This document shows, in pieces, positions 12,121 through 24,181 of a stretch of DNA of 64,000 bases; position 1 is the first letter of the stretch; the number at the start of each line of letters is the position of its first letter. A program made the position numbers and the translations under genes. Source of the stretch: Alphaproteobacteria bacterium (GTDB lineage Bacteria > Pseudomonadota > Alphaproteobacteria > Bin95); contig OZ219786.1 in the NCBI GenBank assembly GCA_964291285.2, positions 896,001 through 960,000 of the forward strand, written 5' to 3'. Below the pieces are notes generated by a model. That model made no database searches. It was not told the DNA's origin and worked only from the letters and a program-made list of their open reading frames with translations.

Positions 12121-12321
12121 CATACAGGTATGAATCGGGAACGATCGGACAGATGACCTGACGAGGCGAAGCGCGCGCGGCATGGGCCGCATTCTGGCGC
12201 TATTCGGGATTTCGAAGGGCGAAACCGGCCTCCGGGTCGGACAGGGGAGGTGCGCGCGCCGGCCGCCCCTGTGCCGACCGACACGATGGAATCCGGCCCG
12301 CGCGGCAAGGAGGAAGTGACG

Positions 12322-12756
12322 ATGAACATGTCTGAAGAAGCGTATCCGCGGCGGCGGGCCTATGGCGAGGACCTGCGCCGCCTGGCGGTGACGGCGGTGC
12401 TGGAGGAGGGGATGAGCCTGGCGGCCGCGGGCCGGCGGTTCGGCGTGAGCGACATGAGCGTCGCAAGCTGGGTGAAGCGCTGGCATGAGCGCGGCCATCT
12501 GCGGCCCGATGCGAAGGGCGGCGACCGCAAGTCCTGGCGCATCGAGGCGGAGCGGGAGCGGATTTTCCGCATCCTGGAGCGCCACCCGGCGATCACGCTG
12601 CGCGCGCTGCGCGACCGGCTGGCCGCCGAGGGCGCCGTGTTCGGGGCCTCCACCGTGCAGCGCTTCCTGAAGCGCCACGGCCTGAGGCGCGAGCGCCGCT
12701 TCAGCGGCCGCCTCGACACCCTCCGCCGCAAACGCGCGGCCGCCGGGCGCGGGTGA
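12322..12756 (+). CDS. Orphan IS630-family transposase N-terminal (tandem HTH) protein, no DDE domain
   Basis: AYGEDLRR..V..EG.S..AA.RRFGVS...V..WVKR...GGDRKS...P.ITL..L...L....STV.RFLKRHG; AAGGAGG RBS. Confidence 0.8.
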   Translation: MNMSEEAYPRRRAYGEDLRRLAVTAVLEEGMSLAAAGRRFGVSDMSVASWVKRWHERGHLRPDAKGGDRKSWRIEAERERIFRILERHPAITLRALRDRLAAEGAVFGASTVQRFLKRHGLRRERRFSGRLDTLRRKRAAAGRG

Positions 12757-12956: not shown

Positions 12957-13382
12957 TCAGGGCGCGAGGACCGTGAACCCCTCGCGGGACGCCGCTTCGT
13001 TCAGACGTGTGTCGAAGCACACGAAGCCGACGCCGGAAGGGTCCTCCTCCGCGCTTGCCAGCGCCGCCGCAAGCTGGAGGCTGTCCGCCGCCCGGAGCGG
13101 ATGCACGCGGAGCAGGCGCTGCGCCAGATCCCTGACGCGCCGGCCCGGCTGGACTTCGTACCACACCTGCGAGAGGGCATGGAGGCGCCGGATAACGCCG
13201 GACGCTTCGGCCGTCGTCAGGCTCCCCTCGCGTTCGCGCCGCGAAACGGCCGCGACATACTCGACCGTCGATCCCCACCAGACGGCCATGCGGTCGTCCG
13301 CCTCCAGCACGCGGACGGCGAACTGCCGGTGTCTTTCGTCGACGCTGAGGGCGATGAGGGCGGAGGTGTCCCAGAAGTTCAA
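12957..13382 (-). CDS. vapC: PIN-domain (VapC family) toxin
   Basis: FWDTSAL, E, LRAADSLQLAAA, FVCFDTRL acidic residues. Confidence 0.9.
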   Translation of the reverse strand: MNFWDTSALIALSVDERHRQFAVRVLEADDRMAVWWGSTVEYVAAVSRREREGSLTTAEASGVIRRLHALSQVWYEVQPGRRVRDLAQRLLRVHPLRAADSLQLAAALASAEEDPSGVGFVCFDTRLNEAASREGFTVLAP

Positions 13383-13705
13383 CGGCCGCCTTCCAGGCGC
13401 TCTTCCGAGCGTTCCTCCAGCAGGGCGTCCAGAATCCCGGCGCCCGCTCCGAGCGGCGTGTCCAGCACCGTCAACGGGCTCCCCTCCCTGCGGCGCGACA
13501 GCGTTCCCGCGCGCTCCAGCCGGGCAATCCTGGCGTCGCCGTCCACCTCGTCAGCTCCGCTGCCGCCGTCCACGCCCCGTCCGACGGGAACGATGCGCGC
13601 CACGGGGACCGTGCGGTCAAGCACCAGCACCGATTCGCCCGACCGAACCCGGCGGAGATAAGCGCTCAGGCCGTTTTTCACCTGGGAAACCGTAACCCGG
13701 ATCAT
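13379..13705 (-). CDS. Phd/YefM-type antitoxin
   Basis: VTVSQVKNGLSAYLRRVRSGESVLVLDRTVPVARIVP; 4-bp overlap with toxin; alternative start 13738. Confidence 0.88.
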   Translation of the reverse strand: MIRVTVSQVKNGLSAYLRRVRSGESVLVLDRTVPVARIVPVGRGVDGGSGADEVDGDARIARLERAGTLSRRREGSPLTVLDTPLGAGAGILDALLEERSEERLEGGR

Positions 13706-13727
13706 GAGTTCGCTCCCGACTTCCTTC

Positions 13728-13744
13728 CTGGCCATATTAGCCAG
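13728..13744 (-). promoter_or_regulatory. Candidate TA autoregulatory operator overlapping a -10 element
   Basis: CTGGC-N7-GCCAG palindrome; minus strand contains TAATAT. Confidence 0.45.
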
Positions 13745-13832
13745 ATCGACGGGGCCGGACAAGCCGCCTCCGCGCCGTTCGAGGCCGGACGGCCTCCCTC
13801 CGTCATGCCCGAACGGCCCCCTCGCCGCTCCG

Positions 13833-18683: not shown

Positions 18684-19598
18684 ATGGCGGACGGCAACAC
18701 GGTCGGATTCATCGGGCTCGGCGTGATGGGCGAGCCGATGTGCCGGAACATTCTGGGCAAGTCTGGCCGGCGGGTGCTGTGCCACGACCTCAGCCCCGAG
18801 CCGGCGGCCCGCCTCGCGGCCGAGGGCGCGGAGGCGGCGGAGCCGGAGGAGATCGCGCGGCAGGCCGGAACGGTGCTGCTGTCGCTGCCCGGCGGGCCGC
18901 AGGTGCGCAGCGTCTGCCTGGGCGACGGCGGGCTGGTCGCGGCGATGGGGCCGGGACAGGTGCTGGTGGACTGCTCGACCGCCCCGCCGGCGCTCGCCCG
19001 TGAACTGGCGGAAACCTGCGCCGGGCGCGGCATCGCCTTTGCCGATGCGCCCGTCGCCCGCACCGCGCAGGCCGCCATCGACGGCACGCTGTCGATCATG
19101 GTGGGCGCCACGGAGGAGACCTTCGGGCGCATCCGCCCGCTGCTCGACTGCATGGCCGCCGAGGTCACCCATTGCGGCGGCGCGGGCGCGGGCCAGGCGG
19201 TCAAGCTGCTGAACAACATGGTGGTCGCGATGACGGTGGTGGCGCTTGCCGAAGCGCTCTCGGCGGCCCGCGCGTCGGGGGCGGTGGACGGCAGGGTGCT
19301 GTTCGAGACCCTGGCGCGCAGCTCCGCCGACAGCTTCGTGCTGCGCAACCACGGCATGAAATGCCTGCTGACCGGCGAGCACCCGACCGAGGGCGCCTTC
19401 CCGACCGACTACATCCTGAAGGACCTCTCCTACGCGCTCGACTTCGCGGAAGGCGCCGGGATGGAGATGCGCGCCGCCAACGTCACCCGCGACCTCATGG
19501 AGCGCACCCGCGACGCCGGCTTCGCCCGGAACTACTACACCGCGGTCGTCGAGACGCTCGGCCCGCGCCGGCCGGCGGGCGGCGCGGCAAGCCCCTAG
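18684..19598 (+). CDS. Beta-hydroxyacid dehydrogenase (3-hydroxyisobutyrate dehydrogenase family)
   Basis: GFIGLGVMG, DAPV, GTLSIMVG, KLLNN, KDL. Confidence 0.92.
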   Translation: MADGNTVGFIGLGVMGEPMCRNILGKSGRRVLCHDLSPEPAARLAAEGAEAAEPEEIARQAGTVLLSLPGGPQVRSVCLGDGGLVAAMGPGQVLVDCSTAPPALARELAETCAGRGIAFADAPVARTAQAAIDGTLSIMVGATEETFGRIRPLLDCMAAEVTHCGGAGAGQAVKLLNNMVVAMTVVALAEALSAARASGAVDGRVLFETLARSSADSFVLRNHGMKCLLTGEHPTEGAFPTDYILKDLSYALDFAEGAGMEMRAANVTRDLMERTRDAGFARNYYTAVVETLGPRRPAGGAASP

Positions 19599-20821
19599 CC
19601 GACGCCGGGGATGGGAATCGGAAACGGCGGGTCCTCGTCATCGTCATCGGCCGCCCGGAATTCCGGCGCCGCCATGCCAAACCCCCAGCCGGGCACGGTG
19701 TGGAAGCCGGTCGTCCCCGACGCGGTAAGCCCGTGGCCCGTCTCTCCCACGCCGGGGATGGGCACCGGAAACGGCGGGTCCTCGTCGTCGTCATCGGCCG
19801 CCCAATCGAGCGCGGCGCGGAATTTCGACACCGGCATACCGCCCCACCAACCGGGCGCCGTCCCGTCTATCCAGGGCTGCGGCGTCGGGCAGGGCAGCGG
19901 CCCTGTCGGCCAGGGCAAGGGGCAGGGGCAAGAGCCGCCGGAACTCATGTCGTCGATCCCGCCGGCCACCAGTCTCTGCACCGTTGCGCCCCACCGATGA
20001 TCCGGCATGCGAGCCACCGTCATGGTCATGGCACCCGTTTCCGGGTCGGCGACCTTCGTTCCGGGGGCCGCCCAGCCGCCCGCCGCGCCCATGCTCGTCG
20101 CGATCCACGGCCATGGCCGTGGACAAGGCGGAGAGGGACAGGGGCAGCAACACGGACATGCGTCTTCGACAGGAATCATGTTCACATAGTCGATCTCGCC
20201 GGATACAAGGCTCCGCACCGCCGCATCGGCGCGAAGGCAGTCGAAGCCGATGCGCTCCTCCGCCTTGCCGTAGACCTGCAGCGCCTCGCGCATCATGTCC
20301 TTGAGGAACCGGTCCATATTTCCCCGGTTCAGGACGCCGCCGTATTTCTCCCTGAGGAGGGCGTCCAGGCGCTCCTGCATCTCGCGGTCCGCATTGACCG
20401 GCACCACCATCTGCACCGGCAGGCTCCCTCCGAAAACAGGGCCGTAACCGGCGCCCGTCCCCGTCCAGTAGACCGGACCTCCGAACACCATGGCCGCATA
20501 TCCGGACGCCATATATTCCGGCCACCCGGAATCGTCGTATTTCATCCCGACCGGATAGTCTGGCGGCCGCAAGCCCGGCTCGACCGGCGCCGCCGTCCGC
20601 ACCAACAGGCTCCCTTCGAAAGCGGGGCCGTAACCGGCGCCCGTCCCGATCCCGTACGGACTTGCGGGCGCCACGGCCGTATACCCGAGCGCCGGATTCA
20701 TCCGCCATTCAAGGCTCGCGCCGCCGGCTGCCGCCGACCCCGCCGAACCCAGGACCGATACGCCTGCAACCGCCGCAGCCGCGACGGCCAGACGGAACCG
20801 TTGCCTCTTCGATCTGGTCAT
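19595..20821 (-). CDS. Hypothetical secreted Pro/Cys/Trp-rich protein with three pairs of internal repeats
   Basis: N-terminal signal peptide ending in AAA, AAGGA RBS, repeats preserved in frame; no family recognised. Confidence 0.75.
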   Translation of the reverse strand: MTRSKRQRFRLAVAAAAVAGVSVLGSAGSAAAGGASLEWRMNPALGYTAVAPASPYGIGTGAGYGPAFEGSLLVRTAAPVEPGLRPPDYPVGMKYDDSGWPEYMASGYAAMVFGGPVYWTGTGAGYGPVFGGSLPVQMVVPVNADREMQERLDALLREKYGGVLNRGNMDRFLKDMMREALQVYGKAEERIGFDCLRADAAVRSLVSGEIDYVNMIPVEDACPCCCPCPSPPCPRPWPWIATSMGAAGGWAAPGTKVADPETGAMTMTVARMPDHRWGATVQRLVAGGIDDMSSGGSCPCPLPWPTGPLPCPTPQPWIDGTAPGWWGGMPVSKFRAALDWAADDDDEDPPFPVPIPGVGETGHGLTASGTTGFHTVPGWGFGMAAPEFRAADDDDEDPPFPIPIPGVG

Positions 20822-21552
20822 GTTCCTTGCTCCATCGATGCCGACGGCTTCCCGGCCTCCATGAGTTTCGCCAGGAATTCGGTCAACATCTCGCCCTTCA
20901 CGACAATCTTGCCATTGACGGACTGATTCCGGGTTCGCTTCGGCAGCCCCTTGAGTTGCTCCAACTCCCGATCTCCGATGTCATCACCTTTGAGCCTGTA
21001 TCCGTAGCGGCGCATCCAATCATGTTGCAGGTACAGGTCAACCAGCCCCATGCCTTCCAGAGTGTGGAGCCGATACACCATCGCCTTGCCCACATCCGCA
21101 AGGTCCTGGGCGATCTCCCACCTCCTGCCCGCATAGCCGGCGGCTTCGACCTTGGCTTCGACCTTAGCTTCGGTCTCCGCTACAAGAAGGGATAACACCT
21201 GTACCTGCCGGCATTCGAGGTCGTCCAGCAGCTGGAGCAACCGGGGATCGGACGACAGGACGCGCCACCTGTTACCCGTCCGGGGCCAATGAATATGGCC
21301 CTCGCGGGTACCGTCATCCTTTCTGTGGTCTCCCCACCAACTGAACGCCGACTCCCAAGGCCCAGCCAACTCCCGTGTCAGCAGCTCATAGGACGCGGAT
21401 GCGGCTCCCTCATACGGCGAGACGCGATCCAGCATCGAGAGCCCCTGCCGATTCAATCGACCTTCCAGCACGTCGCCATAGACCTGCGGCGCCAGAAAGA
21501 GGCCGATGCCCCACTCCCTGAATGGCCGCTGCTGAGGATCGCGCTCGCACAT
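20818..21552 (-). CDS. Hypothetical protein with probable winged-HTH domain
   Basis: RQVQVLSLL...WEIAQDLADVGKAMVYRLHTLEGMGLVD; ATG 21552 with AGGA upstream (alternative TTG 21594); 4-bp overlap with next gene. Confidence 0.55.
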   Translation of the reverse strand: MCERDPQQRPFREWGIGLFLAPQVYGDVLEGRLNRQGLSMLDRVSPYEGAASASYELLTRELAGPWESAFSWWGDHRKDDGTREGHIHWPRTGNRWRVLSSDPRLLQLLDDLECRQVQVLSLLVAETEAKVEAKVEAAGYAGRRWEIAQDLADVGKAMVYRLHTLEGMGLVDLYLQHDWMRRYGYRLKGDDIGDRELEQLKGLPKRTRNQSVNGKIVVKGEMLTEFLAKLMEAGKPSASMEQGT

Positions 21553-21710
21553 AACGCGATCCTGAGCCTGCCGCCTTTCGGATCGCAAGCCCAATCGCCG
21601 AAATATTTTCTGGGCCTGTGCGGAAAAATTTTCCTATTCAGCGCGGGACTCGACCGGCGGTCCGGTCTATAGCGGCTGGCGGTCGAAGCACCAGCGCTCG
21701 ATACGTTAGC

Positions 21711-23722
21711 CCGACTTCCGCAACTCGGGGGTCATGAGGATGCTAACTCATTGAATAGCCTTGATCGTCTCCCCGAGGGTCGGCACTACAAGGCGGCGAA
21801 CGGAGAGGCGGCGCCGTGTGCCGTCAGGCGGAGATCCGGGGTGCGGGTTGCTGCGGCCAGGTCATGCCGAGCTGTTGCAGCAGTAGCTCGTGCTCCTTGT
21901 TCGGCCGGGTGTGGCGCGGCAGGACGAGGTGCCGGCCGTCGGTGGTTGGCAGATGGACGTCCACCATCTGGATGGTGGCGAAGGCCTCAAGGATGGCGCG
22001 TGGGGTGAGGCCCGGGGCGCGCGGCCGGGCGAGGTTCTTCAGGGTCACCAGCAGGCAGTAGGCGATGAACGAGACGAAGATATGCGCCTCGATGCGCTCT
22101 TGGCGCTGATGGAAGATGGGGCGGATCGCGAGGTCGTGCTTGAGTTCCTTGAACGCCTGCTCGATCTCGACGAGCTGCATGTACAGATGCCACAGCGTGG
22201 CGGGGTCTTCGGCGACCATGTTGGATCGCAGCAGGTAACGGCCCTCGCGGCGGCGGACCTGGCGCAGCCGGTCGCGCTGCAGGCGGAATGAGAAGCCGTT
22301 GGCGGCGAGTTCGCTGTCGGTCCCGGGCACGGTGATGTCGACCAGGCTCCAGGCCCGGCCGGCCTCCTTCCTGGCGGCGCCGAGCTTGAGCAACAACTGA
22401 TCCCGGCTGTTCGACTGCCCTTGCAACTCGGCCAATCGACGCCACAGCCTCTTCAGCCGGCGCCGGCGCATGCCGCGTTCCTTCACCTGCCGCCCCTCGC
22501 TGCGCACCAGGACGTAGAGCTCGCCATCCTCGACCAGAAGCTTGACAGTCACGGACTGGCGCACCTCCTGCCAGGGCAGGCCCAGGAACACCTTCTCGAG
22601 CCGCGTCAGCCGGCCCTTGGGCGTGCCCACCAGGTAGCGCACCGGCGCCTCGCCCTCGCGCATCGCGGCCAGCGTCTCCTCGGTGGGGATGCCGCGGTCC
22701 ATGATCCACACCCGCTCGGAGCGGCCATACTGATCCTCGATCTTCTTGAGGAACGCCGCCAGCGTGGTGTCGTCGGAGGTGTTGCCCGGCATCACCTCAT
22801 AGGCCAGCGGAAAGCCCTGCGGCGTAACGATCAGGGCGATCACCACCTGCACGCAGTCGGGCCGCTTGTCCCGGCTGTAGCCGAAGCGGCGCTTGTCATC
22901 GAACGGCGGATCGCTCTCGAAGTAGGTCGAGGTCAGGTCGTAGAGCAGCACGTCGAAGCGCGCCTCGAACAGCGTCGCCCAGCGGTCGCGCAGAAACGAG
23001 AAGAAGCCCTGCTTGTGCGCCAGCAGCTTGTCGAGACAGCGATAGAGTGTGTCGTCGGCGATCGCCCGCTCGCCACCCAGAAGATCGCGAAGCGCGCTGT
23101 GCTCATACCAGTGACGGTGAAGGCGCCACTCGCTGCCCGGGTCGATCAGCCGGTAGCAGACCTGGATCTTCAGGATGTCCAGCCACCGCGTGCCTTGCCG
23201 GCTCGCCGGCAGCCGCTCTTCCCAGAAGCGGTCCAGGTCCAGGCGGTCCCACAAGGACAGCGCCAGCCAGCACGCCCCCCACTGGCGCGGGTCGTGAAGC
23301 GCCACCTGCGAGAGGTCGATCTTCACCACTTCGCAAGTCAGCGCCGGCGCCTCCCGGTCCTCGGGAAACAGCGCCATCTGCCGTGATCGCGACTTGCCCT
23401 CCACCACCTCGATCGAGCGGCACCACGCCGCTCGCTGGCTGTCGTTGATCTCCCCGAGATAGAGCACCTGACGCTGAACAACCCGACCGCCGTGGACCCG
23501 GACGTTCTCCACAACGCTCCAGTAGCGGTGCTCCTTGCCGTCCTTGAAGCGTCTCTTGCAGCGCACGAACATCAGCGCAGCGTCCGGATCTTCGCCAGCC
23601 CGATCAAGGGGGTAGGTCGGCACTACAAGCCGGTCCCGAGAGGTACTGCACCGAAATCCGACACTTCTCGCGCCGGAAAACCGTCAAATCAGTCGATTCT
23701 CAAGCCGAGTTGCGGAAGTCGG
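21711..23722 (-). mobile_element. Complete IS1634-family insertion sequence (2012 bp)
   Basis: Perfect 18-bp TIR CCGACTTCCGCAACTCGG (21711-21728 / 23705-23722); 6-bp TSD GTTAGC (21705-21710 / 23723-23728); alternative parse is a 19-bp TIR with a 4-bp TTAG duplication. Confidence 0.93.
21824..23572 (-). CDS. IS1634-family DDE transposase
   Basis: KDGKEHRYWSVVEN, LYDLTSTYFE, GYSRDKRPDC, IMDRG, IEQAFKELK, RIEAHIFVSFIAY. Confidence 0.95.
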   Translation of the reverse strand: MFVRCKRRFKDGKEHRYWSVVENVRVHGGRVVQRQVLYLGEINDSQRAAWCRSIEVVEGKSRSRQMALFPEDREAPALTCEVVKIDLSQVALHDPRQWGACWLALSLWDRLDLDRFWEERLPASRQGTRWLDILKIQVCYRLIDPGSEWRLHRHWYEHSALRDLLGGERAIADDTLYRCLDKLLAHKQGFFSFLRDRWATLFEARFDVLLYDLTSTYFESDPPFDDKRRFGYSRDKRPDCVQVVIALIVTPQGFPLAYEVMPGNTSDDTTLAAFLKKIEDQYGRSERVWIMDRGIPTEETLAAMREGEAPVRYLVGTPKGRLTRLEKVFLGLPWQEVRQSVTVKLLVEDGELYVLVRSEGRQVKERGMRRRRLKRLWRRLAELQGQSNSRDQLLLKLGAARKEAGRAWSLVDITVPGTDSELAANGFSFRLQRDRLRQVRRREGRYLLRSNMVAEDPATLWHLYMQLVEIEQAFKELKHDLAIRPIFHQRQERIEAHIFVSFIAYCLLVTLKNLARPRAPGLTPRAILEAFATIQMVDVHLPTTDGRHLVLPRHTRPNKEHELLLQQLGMTWPQQPAPRISA

Positions 23723-23742
23723 GTTAGCATGAGGAGGAAACC

Positions 23743-24051
23743 GTGAGCAAATCGATCCTGAAACCGGCGGCCGTCTGCGCCGCCCTCGTCGCCGCTGCCG
23801 GCGCGGCGTTCGCCAGCGGCTATCCGCTCGGGCTGCTGCCCGGCTGGCCGGAGGAGCGGACGGCCTCGCAGGCCTGCTTCGAGTATTGCGTCGCGAAGGA
23901 GGGGTGCGCGCCCGGGTGGTATCCCGCGGCGGCGGGACCGCACTATCCGTTCCCTTCCAGCCGGCCCGACGGTTGCACGGCTTACTGCGTCGCGGTGTGC
24001 AGCCCGCTCGGAAGCAGCCTCCCCGACAGCGGGCTCAGGTTCCGATTCTAG
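23743..24051 (+). CDS. Small secreted six-cysteine protein, unknown function
   Basis: GAGGAGG RBS plus GTG, signal peptide ending AFA, two C-x2-YCVA-x(1-3)-C-x-P motifs. Confidence 0.7.
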   Translation: MSKSILKPAAVCAALVAAAGAAFASGYPLGLLPGWPEERTASQACFEYCVAKEGCAPGWYPAAAGPHYPFPSSRPDGCTAYCVAVCSPLGSSLPDSGLRFRF

Positions 24052-24086
24052 CGCACGATCCGTTCCGGTTGGATCGACTTCATTCG

Positions 24087-24135
24087 CCGTCGCCCCGGCC
24101 CCGCGAGGCCCCGGCTCGGGGGGCCGGGGCGACGG
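24087..24135. terminator. Long GC hairpin between convergent genes
   Basis: CCGTCGCCCCGGCCCC ... GGGGCCGGGGCGACGG 16-bp stem; no U-tract. Confidence 0.5.
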
Positions 24136-24181
24136 TCGGGACCTTGTGGACAGGAAAGCAGGATCGCGGCAACTCCATCAG

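Follow-up and report, generated by a model that had tools for sequence, protein, structure and literature searches.

A duplicated acidic, proline-rich motif in a putatively exported, predicted disordered protein of an alphaproteobacterium

What does a bacterium make from a gene whose product starts like an exported protein and then carries three different modules, each of them duplicated? The gene in question, P0001, encodes 408 amino acids and lies on an inserted islet of DNA within a stretch of 64,000 nucleotides (the window; positions 896,001 to 960,000 of contig OZ219786.1, assembly GCA_964291285.2) from a member of the Alphaproteobacteria. An initial annotation likened the product to a multi-core peptide precursor of the kind represented by PatE, the precursor of cyanobactins, and named a disordered metal-binding or matrix protein as the alternative. 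The analysis presented here leads us to prefer, tentatively and at somewhat less than an even chance, another answer, namely that P0001 is exported and serves as a disordered scaffold, on which a short linear docking motif of conserved sequence is displayed and has been duplicated to gain avidity. Central to this reading is module C, a short unit made up of an acidic run followed by PPFP-x-P-x-PG(V/I)G.

Conservation and rarity of the module C motif

A HMMER pass with P0001 over 1.84 billion representative proteins gave 11 proteins at E<=0.001, the query included. Its closest homologues (P0003, P0004/P0007, P0005, P0008 and P0009) have in common with it the signal and the helical module as well as modules B and C, with copy numbers of 0-2 for module A, 1-2 for module B and 1-2 for module C. 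Hits of very different composition matched module C only, and a module C profile was therefore built from 11 proteins. In a search of 5.8 billion clusters, 8000 candidates were scored with this profile, of which 26 proteins reached E<=1; these, together with three cluster members, make up the 29 proteins in which the motif was tabulated. A strict core, counted as P-(I/L/V/M)-P-x-P-G-(V/I)-(G/V), is present in 49 copies in 26 of the 29, with one to four copies in each; it is absent from P0015, P0016 and P0008, the last of which has a degenerate copy. Module C, which had been described from P0001 as a duplicated module, thus recurs across protein collections, in one or two copies in the closest group and in up to four strict copies elsewhere, and its copy number varies among homologues rather than being fixed.

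In most copies an acidic run and then P-(P/E)-(F/L/Y/W/M) lead up to the core. Pro-Pro precedes the core in 33 of the 49, and in 46 of them the next residue after the core is E, K, D or N. The acidic run varies in length; across the 49 copies the proposed core is invariant, and the flanks vary both in length and in sequence. The position of the motif differs among its bearers, from immediately behind the signal (P0026) to the interior or the C-terminal region, and the sequence around it cannot be aligned; 30 of the 49 copies have more than 20 residues between them and the C-terminus, and two copies in P0025 are separated by 5 residues. The proteins themselves fall into two compositional types, with F/L/I/M/N/K/Y making up a fraction of 0.37-0.47 in 10 of them and 0.21-0.29 in the other 19, which are rich in G, A, R and P. 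Since ten bearers have a composition of the A+T type, the Pro/Gly-rich motif is kept even against composition. A signal-like hydrophobic N-terminus is seen in 24 of the 29, the five exceptions including short fragments. Within the closest group, module C' is the best-conserved part of the protein, with an identity of 0.69 as opposed to 0.06-0.39 for the other modules; modules A and B are lineage-specific duplications, not cores.

The motif is also rare. Its back-translated pattern occurred in 2 stretches among 185,579 species genomes, one of them real (L002, from an alphaproteobacterial metagenome-assembled genome) and the other (L001) a chance match with a stop codon directly before it. The 2 stretches found in JGI metagenome contigs were both the same chance sequence as L001. 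Five stretches in IMG/VR were likewise taken as chance, four of them being in frames that look non-coding and the fifth, L023, in an acidic 552-aa frame without an acidic run. In its own order and family the motif gene was present in 2 of 37 genomes, the source genome G000 and G005, whose contig has the same 183-aa open reading frame (ORF) as L002; two further genomes (G030 and G033) gave weak family-level matches (E ~0.01) without the motif. Evenly drawn samples of the class and of the phylum each contained it in 1 of 401 genomes, in both cases G000. The plasmid collection held no match to P0001 or P0010, and a search with the locus matched TRAP-transporter DNA only.

Searches of family and structure libraries brought no assignment. 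Pfam, NCBIfam, PHROGs and PADLOC returned sub-threshold noise only for P0001, for its upstream neighbour P0002 (also listed as P0031), for the small Cys-rich protein of the islet, for the L002 neighbour and for the other bearers scanned; the NCBIfam scan covered 20 distinct proteins, P0001 and P0002 at E<=1 and 18 further ones at E<=0.05. Profile searches of the PDB with the motif, P0001-family and P0002-family alignments gave no match below E 0.2, the ESM Atlas held no usable match for P0001, and a literature search with six motif strings found none of them in any paper.

The gene and its modules

P0001 is a real gene, as seen from its homologues, from a third-position GC content (GC3) that is highest in its own frame (0.81, compared with 0.64 and 0.58 in two long overlapping alternative ORFs) and from a start that overlaps the end of P0002 by 4 nt; its 408 codons contain no internal stop. 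The whole stretch is present without difference in three sequencing runs of one organism, which may be its source. A fourth run (X4) holds a near-identical variant of P0001 with an in-frame 6-nt deletion and a few, mostly conservative substitutions, which within the motif alter only the two x positions (V353L and I355V). Neither P0001 nor P0002 has a paralogue elsewhere in the genome. No RNA dataset was listed as containing the P0001 locus, and expression data were not found.

By eye and on its hydropathy, the N-terminus of P0001 resembles a Sec signal peptide, with five basic residues, an 18-residue stretch of Ala, Val, Leu and Gly (hydropathy maximum 2.37) and then Ala-Ala-Ala, and this would mean that the protein is exported. 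AlphaFold run on a 7-sequence alignment predicts a mostly disordered protein (mean pLDDT, AlphaFold's confidence measure, of 40.6), with helices only at residues 3-33, 144-160, 169-190 and 199-206 and no structure for residues 207-408. The structure prediction that had been proposed as a check thus gave a mostly unstructured chain. A secretin (PF00263) was not found in G000, which is 100% complete, while control genomes were positive, and G000 is therefore without the classical secretin of type II secretion, type IV pili or Tad systems. This makes a type II route unlikely and points to the periplasm or cell envelope, where P0001 is probably located rather than being freely secreted.

The three duplications (Table 1) were examined by local protein alignments, each compared with 2000 shuffles; none of the shuffles scored as high as A/A' (score 96), B/B' (score 84) or C/C' (score 132, z 18.2). 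Two of the duplications are visible in the DNA as well, A/A' as repeat D1 (20389-20470 and 20575-20656) and C/C' as repeat D2 (58 nt, 93% identity; 19599-19656 and 19746-19803). The ORF, its signal-like start and all three duplications are therefore where they had initially been placed. The order A-A'-B-B'-C-C' needs amending, since a single-copy helical module stands between A' and B and a Met-rich module between B and B'. Six consecutive Asp/Glu residues open each C module. Module B has 7 Cys in 17 residues and module B' has 3, while residues 258-277, in the Met-rich module, hold three Met together with His and Trp; the protein as a whole contains 4.4% Met, 2.5% Cys and 3.2% Trp. A similar Met-rich stretch is present twice in P0026.

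It had also been remarked that the last C copy reaches the stop codon. This is so because P0001 has lost a family tail of about 18 residues: the homologues of the closest group run 18 residues past their last motif, and P0001 has a stop codon there instead. The adjoining 3-hydroxyisobutyrate-dehydrogenase-like gene has about 9 extra C-terminal residues (19560-19598, plus strand) relative to its 92%-identical homologue in L002, and this extension reads antisense through the former P0001 tail, which suggests a small deletion at the junction.

Table 1. Positions of P0001, its modules and the other elements of the islet in the window
Feature	Position	Strand	Evidence or remark
P0001 ORF, 408 aa, putatively exported modular protein	19595..20821	-	Open frame, GC3, homologues
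Signal-peptide-like N-terminus, residues 1-32	20726..20821	-	Basic n-region, hydrophobic core, Ala-Ala-Ala
Modules A (core residues ~59-72) and A' (~121-134), both within DNA repeat D1	20389..20656	-	82 nt, 82% identity; z 11.2; shared with P0003 only
Single-copy helical module, residues 143-195	20237..20395	-	AlphaFold helices 144-160 and 169-190; block pLDDT 55-63; mean identity 0.39 to 6 homologues
Module B, residues 196-242, Cys/Pro/Trp-rich end	20096..20236	-	z 8.0
Met-rich module M, residues 243-279	19985..20095	-	Alignment: kept in P0004, P0007, P0005, P0008
Module B', residues 280-321	19859..19984	-	6 homologues, all alignable here; identity 0.38 on average
Module C, residues 341-360, acidic run + PPFPVPIPGVG + E	19742..19801	-	DNA repeat, motif tabulation
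Module C', residues 390-408, acidic run + PPFPIPIPGVG, then stop codon	19598..19654	-	Mean identity to homologues 0.69
Islet, ~4.6 kb, between 3-hydroxyisobutyrate-dehydrogenase-like gene and methyltransferase gene	19599..24181		Absent from 5/5 genus relatives examined
P0002/P0031, upstream gene, 244 aa from ATG; frame open to TTG at 21594	20818..21552	-	Two homologues at 67% and 62% identity
Insertion sequence, between P0002-P0001 pair and small Cys-rich gene	21707..23726	-	DDE transposase 21824-23623, 22-nt terminal inverted repeats
Small putatively exported 6-Cys protein, 102 aa	23743..24051	+	61% identical homologue beside motif gene in L002

Possible functions of the repeated motif

All readings of P0001 considered here rest on sequence features. 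As a docking scaffold, P0001 would be a horizontally acquired, Sec-exported and largely disordered protein in which each C module presents a polyproline-II-type stretch and a terminal glycine turn. The part that matters for function would be the rare motif with its invariant core P-(I/L)-P-x-P-G-(V/I)-G. Steered by its acidic flank, this unit would be bound outside the cytoplasm by a conserved partner, and binding would gain in avidity from duplication of the module, which has two copies here and reaches four strict copies elsewhere. Modules A, B and M, being poorly conserved, could then serve as lineage-specific spacers or accessory parts. Several points weigh against this proposal. The charged flanks, the variable copy number and the C-terminal copy would suit a processed peptide equally well. 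The signal peptide was called by eye and hydropathy only, and the disorder, given the low AlphaFold confidence and the 7-sequence alignment, is a prediction and not a measurement. Finally, P0001 lacks the C-terminal tail of its family and has an insertion sequence (IS) in its upstream region, so the gene may be impaired. Compared by eye with consensus patterns, the motif fitted none of the eukaryotic proline-motif classes EVH1, SH3, WW and GYF.

Bacterial RiPP (peptide made by the ribosome and modified after translation) precursors generally carry a cytoplasmic leader peptide instead of an export signal. P0001 does resemble PatE in being a single polypeptide with more than one copy of a short peptide unit and its flanking sequences. 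However, the likeness to a cyanobactin-type multi-core precursor fails on the Sec-like N-terminus, which by the same heuristic is not a cytoplasmic leader, on the absence of maturation genes nearby, on the invariance of the supposed core and on the length of 408 aa. One account of cyanobactins mentions leader-guided biosynthesis and describes encoded peptides flanked by conserved recognition sequences, with precursors cut by the proteases PatA and PatG, which are encoded in a cluster of about 10 kb and 7-12 genes (PMC2854353). The arrangement in P0001 is the reverse of the one described there, with an invariant repeat unit between variable flanks, and no genes of the PatA or PatG type adjoin it. 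No protease, cyclase or other maturation gene is present on the islet or among the 21 confident ORFs scanned with Pfam from 5443 to 40715, a span reaching about 14 kb to one side and 20 kb to the other; the scan gave housekeeping genes only. Seven Peptidase_S8 genes are present in the genome, all elsewhere, and the nearest on the same replicon is about 500 kb away.

Processing of a different kind is conceivable, though we consider it rather unlikely: P0001 could be a polyprotein in which, after Sec export, cuts on both sides of each C module release a proline-rich signal or effector peptide of about 11-17 residues, by analogy a bacterial counterpart of the repeat proteins that Kex2 processes in fungi (KEPs) or of the multi-domain precursors of plant peptide hormones. 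A short conserved unit in one to four copies, followed by a charged residue or Asn in nearly every case and set between unconserved spacers, is what such a precursor might look like, and the closely spaced copies of P0025, the P0001 copy that ends exactly at the C-terminus and the prevalence of signal-like N-termini in the tabulated proteins are consistent with it. KEPs are defined as fungal precursors with multiple cores, each flanked by KEX2 cleavage sites (PMC9769878, PMC6339444); P0001 shares with them a putatively secretory character, the near-identical short repeats between spacers and a copy number that varies among relatives (PMC7329392, PMC9769878, PMC6339444). A signal-like N-terminus followed by repeated near-identical cores is thus present in P0001, but membership is contradicted by the flanks, which form no uniform cleavage site, being an acidic run of varying length upstream and a single E, K, D or N downstream, and P0001 is a bacterial protein without any known processing protease. 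Conservation in the closest group moreover reaches into the tail and module B', no transporter gene accompanies the motif gene on the islet or in the scanned ORFs, and in the absence of a secretin a released peptide would stay trapped in the periplasm unless another route exists. In plant C-terminally encoded peptides (CEPs), a 15-residue proline-containing domain, most commonly DFRPTAPGHSPGVGH and ending in His, occurs in one or several copies per secreted precursor (PMC4197245). The P0001 unit is likewise proline-containing, ends in PGVG plus one residue and occurs in one or several copies, but only the PGVG letters are shared with that domain. Mimicry of a CEP was rejected, as His follows the motif in none of the 48 copies that have a following residue and the first ten positions are unmatched; what hint there is of a habitat comes from a sponge metagenome run, not from a plant. 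The reading as a substrate of Pro-Pro endopeptidases, which require a Pro-Pro bond at the cleavage site and whose homologues are reported to be confined to two Firmicutes orders (PMC8610288), was rejected as well; Pro-Pro precedes the core in only about two thirds of the copies, and the enzyme was not searched for in the genome.

SilE/PcoE-type periplasmic metal sponges are recognizable by a family match and by repeated Met/His metal motifs. P0001 has no Pfam or NCBIfam match, to a metal-binding family or otherwise, and a single Met-rich module with His and Trp, conserved in four homologues. We regard it as improbable that P0001 is a sponge of this sort, a periplasmic disordered protein that would bind Cu(I)/Ag(I) or hard cations through Met, Cys-Pro, Trp/His and poly-Asp/Glu, even though its Met-rich module, the Cys of modules B and B', the acidic runs and the predicted disorder would all suit that role; the element common to all 26 bearers contains no soft-metal ligand, the Cys count of module B falls to one or two in homologues, and a gene for metal resistance was found neither on the islet nor among the neighbouring ORFs scanned. 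Of the alternative first put forward, a disordered metal-binding or matrix protein, the disorder fits the AlphaFold prediction, in which only three helices stand besides the signal peptide. The regular spacing at the C-terminus raises the further thought that the motif derives from a sorting signal, as its relic or as a variant form; a sorting enzyme would then read the motif together with a brief hydrophobic segment and a basic terminus, and the internal copies would be duplicated relics. In all 9 of the motif-bearing homologues of the closest group other than P0001, exactly 18 residues separate the last motif from the C-terminus, the tail containing a hydrophobic stretch of about 10 residues and ending in Arg-Ala-Val-His or a near variant, and P0022, P0028, P0029 and P0030 end 10-12 residues past the motif. 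This we think very improbable, because a membrane helix would need a longer hydrophobic stretch, there is no Arg cluster, most copies stand far from the C-terminus, P0001 has no tail at all, and no match to PEP-CTERM or kindred sorting domains was found by NCBIfam in the 20 proteins scanned. The loss of that tail, with a stop codon where homologues continue, could instead mark P0001 as a decaying passenger, an intact ORF in a degenerating locus with no remaining role in this strain; the IS, 113 nt upstream of the P0002 TTG start and 17 nt from the small Cys-rich gene, and the occurrence of the gene in so few of the family genomes are in keeping with this. There is little probability in it, as the 408-codon frame is open with its GC3 bias, the 4-nt overlap with P0002 is kept, the X4 variant differs by an in-frame deletion and mostly conservative changes, and both motif copies are intact.

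The broader significance would lie in the motif itself. A motif of 16-18 residues is kept nearly letter for letter in about two dozen orphan, apparently exported proteins, from organisms of opposite base composition, in which all else around it differs; such a pattern is the signature of an undescribed specific recognition. Either its partner or a released peptide, once found, would establish a novel recognition module in the bacterial envelope or in the contact between bacterium and host. A bolder proposal, which we hold to be quite unlikely, is that bacteria have an undescribed class of Sec-exported repeat-peptide precursors, for which the acidic-PPFPxPxPG(V/I)G unit would be the active product or the epitope bound by a receptor. 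This class would parallel the KEPs of fungi and the precursors of plant peptide hormones, would be common to host-associated bacteria that differ widely in base composition, and would be directed at a conserved, possibly host, target. With at most 26 proteins among 5.8 billion clusters, the general importance of the motif is limited unless its partner is widespread.

The islet and its genomic setting

The window is chromosome-like, with ftsH, folP, yidC, recA, a TRAP transporter and other such genes. P0001 stands tail to tail with the dehydrogenase-like gene. In all five genus relatives examined, that gene is followed after 2-770 nt by methyltransferase and histidine-kinase genes, which in the window lie beyond 24182, and the DNA between is therefore an inserted islet; P0001, P0002 and the small Cys-rich protein were found in none of the five. 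The GC3 of P0001 and P0002 (0.81 and 0.74) is lower than the 0.92-0.96 of the flanking genes. L002 has the same islet at the same place, with a motif protein of 183 aa that matches P0001 only from module B' onwards (46% identity) and an overlapping upstream ORF unrelated to P0002. Between 2200 and 3104 the L002 islet contains an inserted PemK/MazF-type toxin gene with an upstream small ORF (a mazEF-type pair) and, right behind the motif gene, short pieces duplicated from the two flanking genes, those of the dehydrogenase and the methyltransferase.

Of the 37 family genomes, only the two with the motif gene have the small Cys-rich protein, each time on the same islet and in divergent orientation; it is a candidate partner of P0001. 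For P0002, one homologue and one P0001 homologue are each on a contig of 3376 nt, which suggests that the pair probably recurs elsewhere. P0002 and its two homologues contain in mid-protein a variable four-residue repeat of the Glu-Ala-x-Val type (2-5 units), the rest being well conserved and of no family. AlphaFold modelled P0002 from 3 sequences with a pLDDT of 36.6, and weak leads in the ESM Atlas (0.83) to conjugation ATPase-like clusters were not trusted.

The IS on the islet (2020 bp, with a DDE_Tnp_1 transposase) is present in G000 in 44 copies of >=1983 nt at 99.9-100% identity, spread over all five replicons, with 11 further partial pieces; its expansion is recent and massive, and would be in keeping with a lifestyle that has lately become restricted to a host. 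For a sponge-associated habitat there is a weak hint from a single study, in one run of which metagenomic pieces of 177, 138 and 168 nt, with 5, 1 and 1 differences and a depth of 3.6-5.3, cover 19627-20070. About 6 kb from the islet lies a helix-turn-helix transposase-like ORF (12250-12756), and close to it a Phd/YefM-type antitoxin ORF (13379-13762) with an adjacent ORF of 141 aa (12957-13382), a small mobile or toxin-antitoxin patch.

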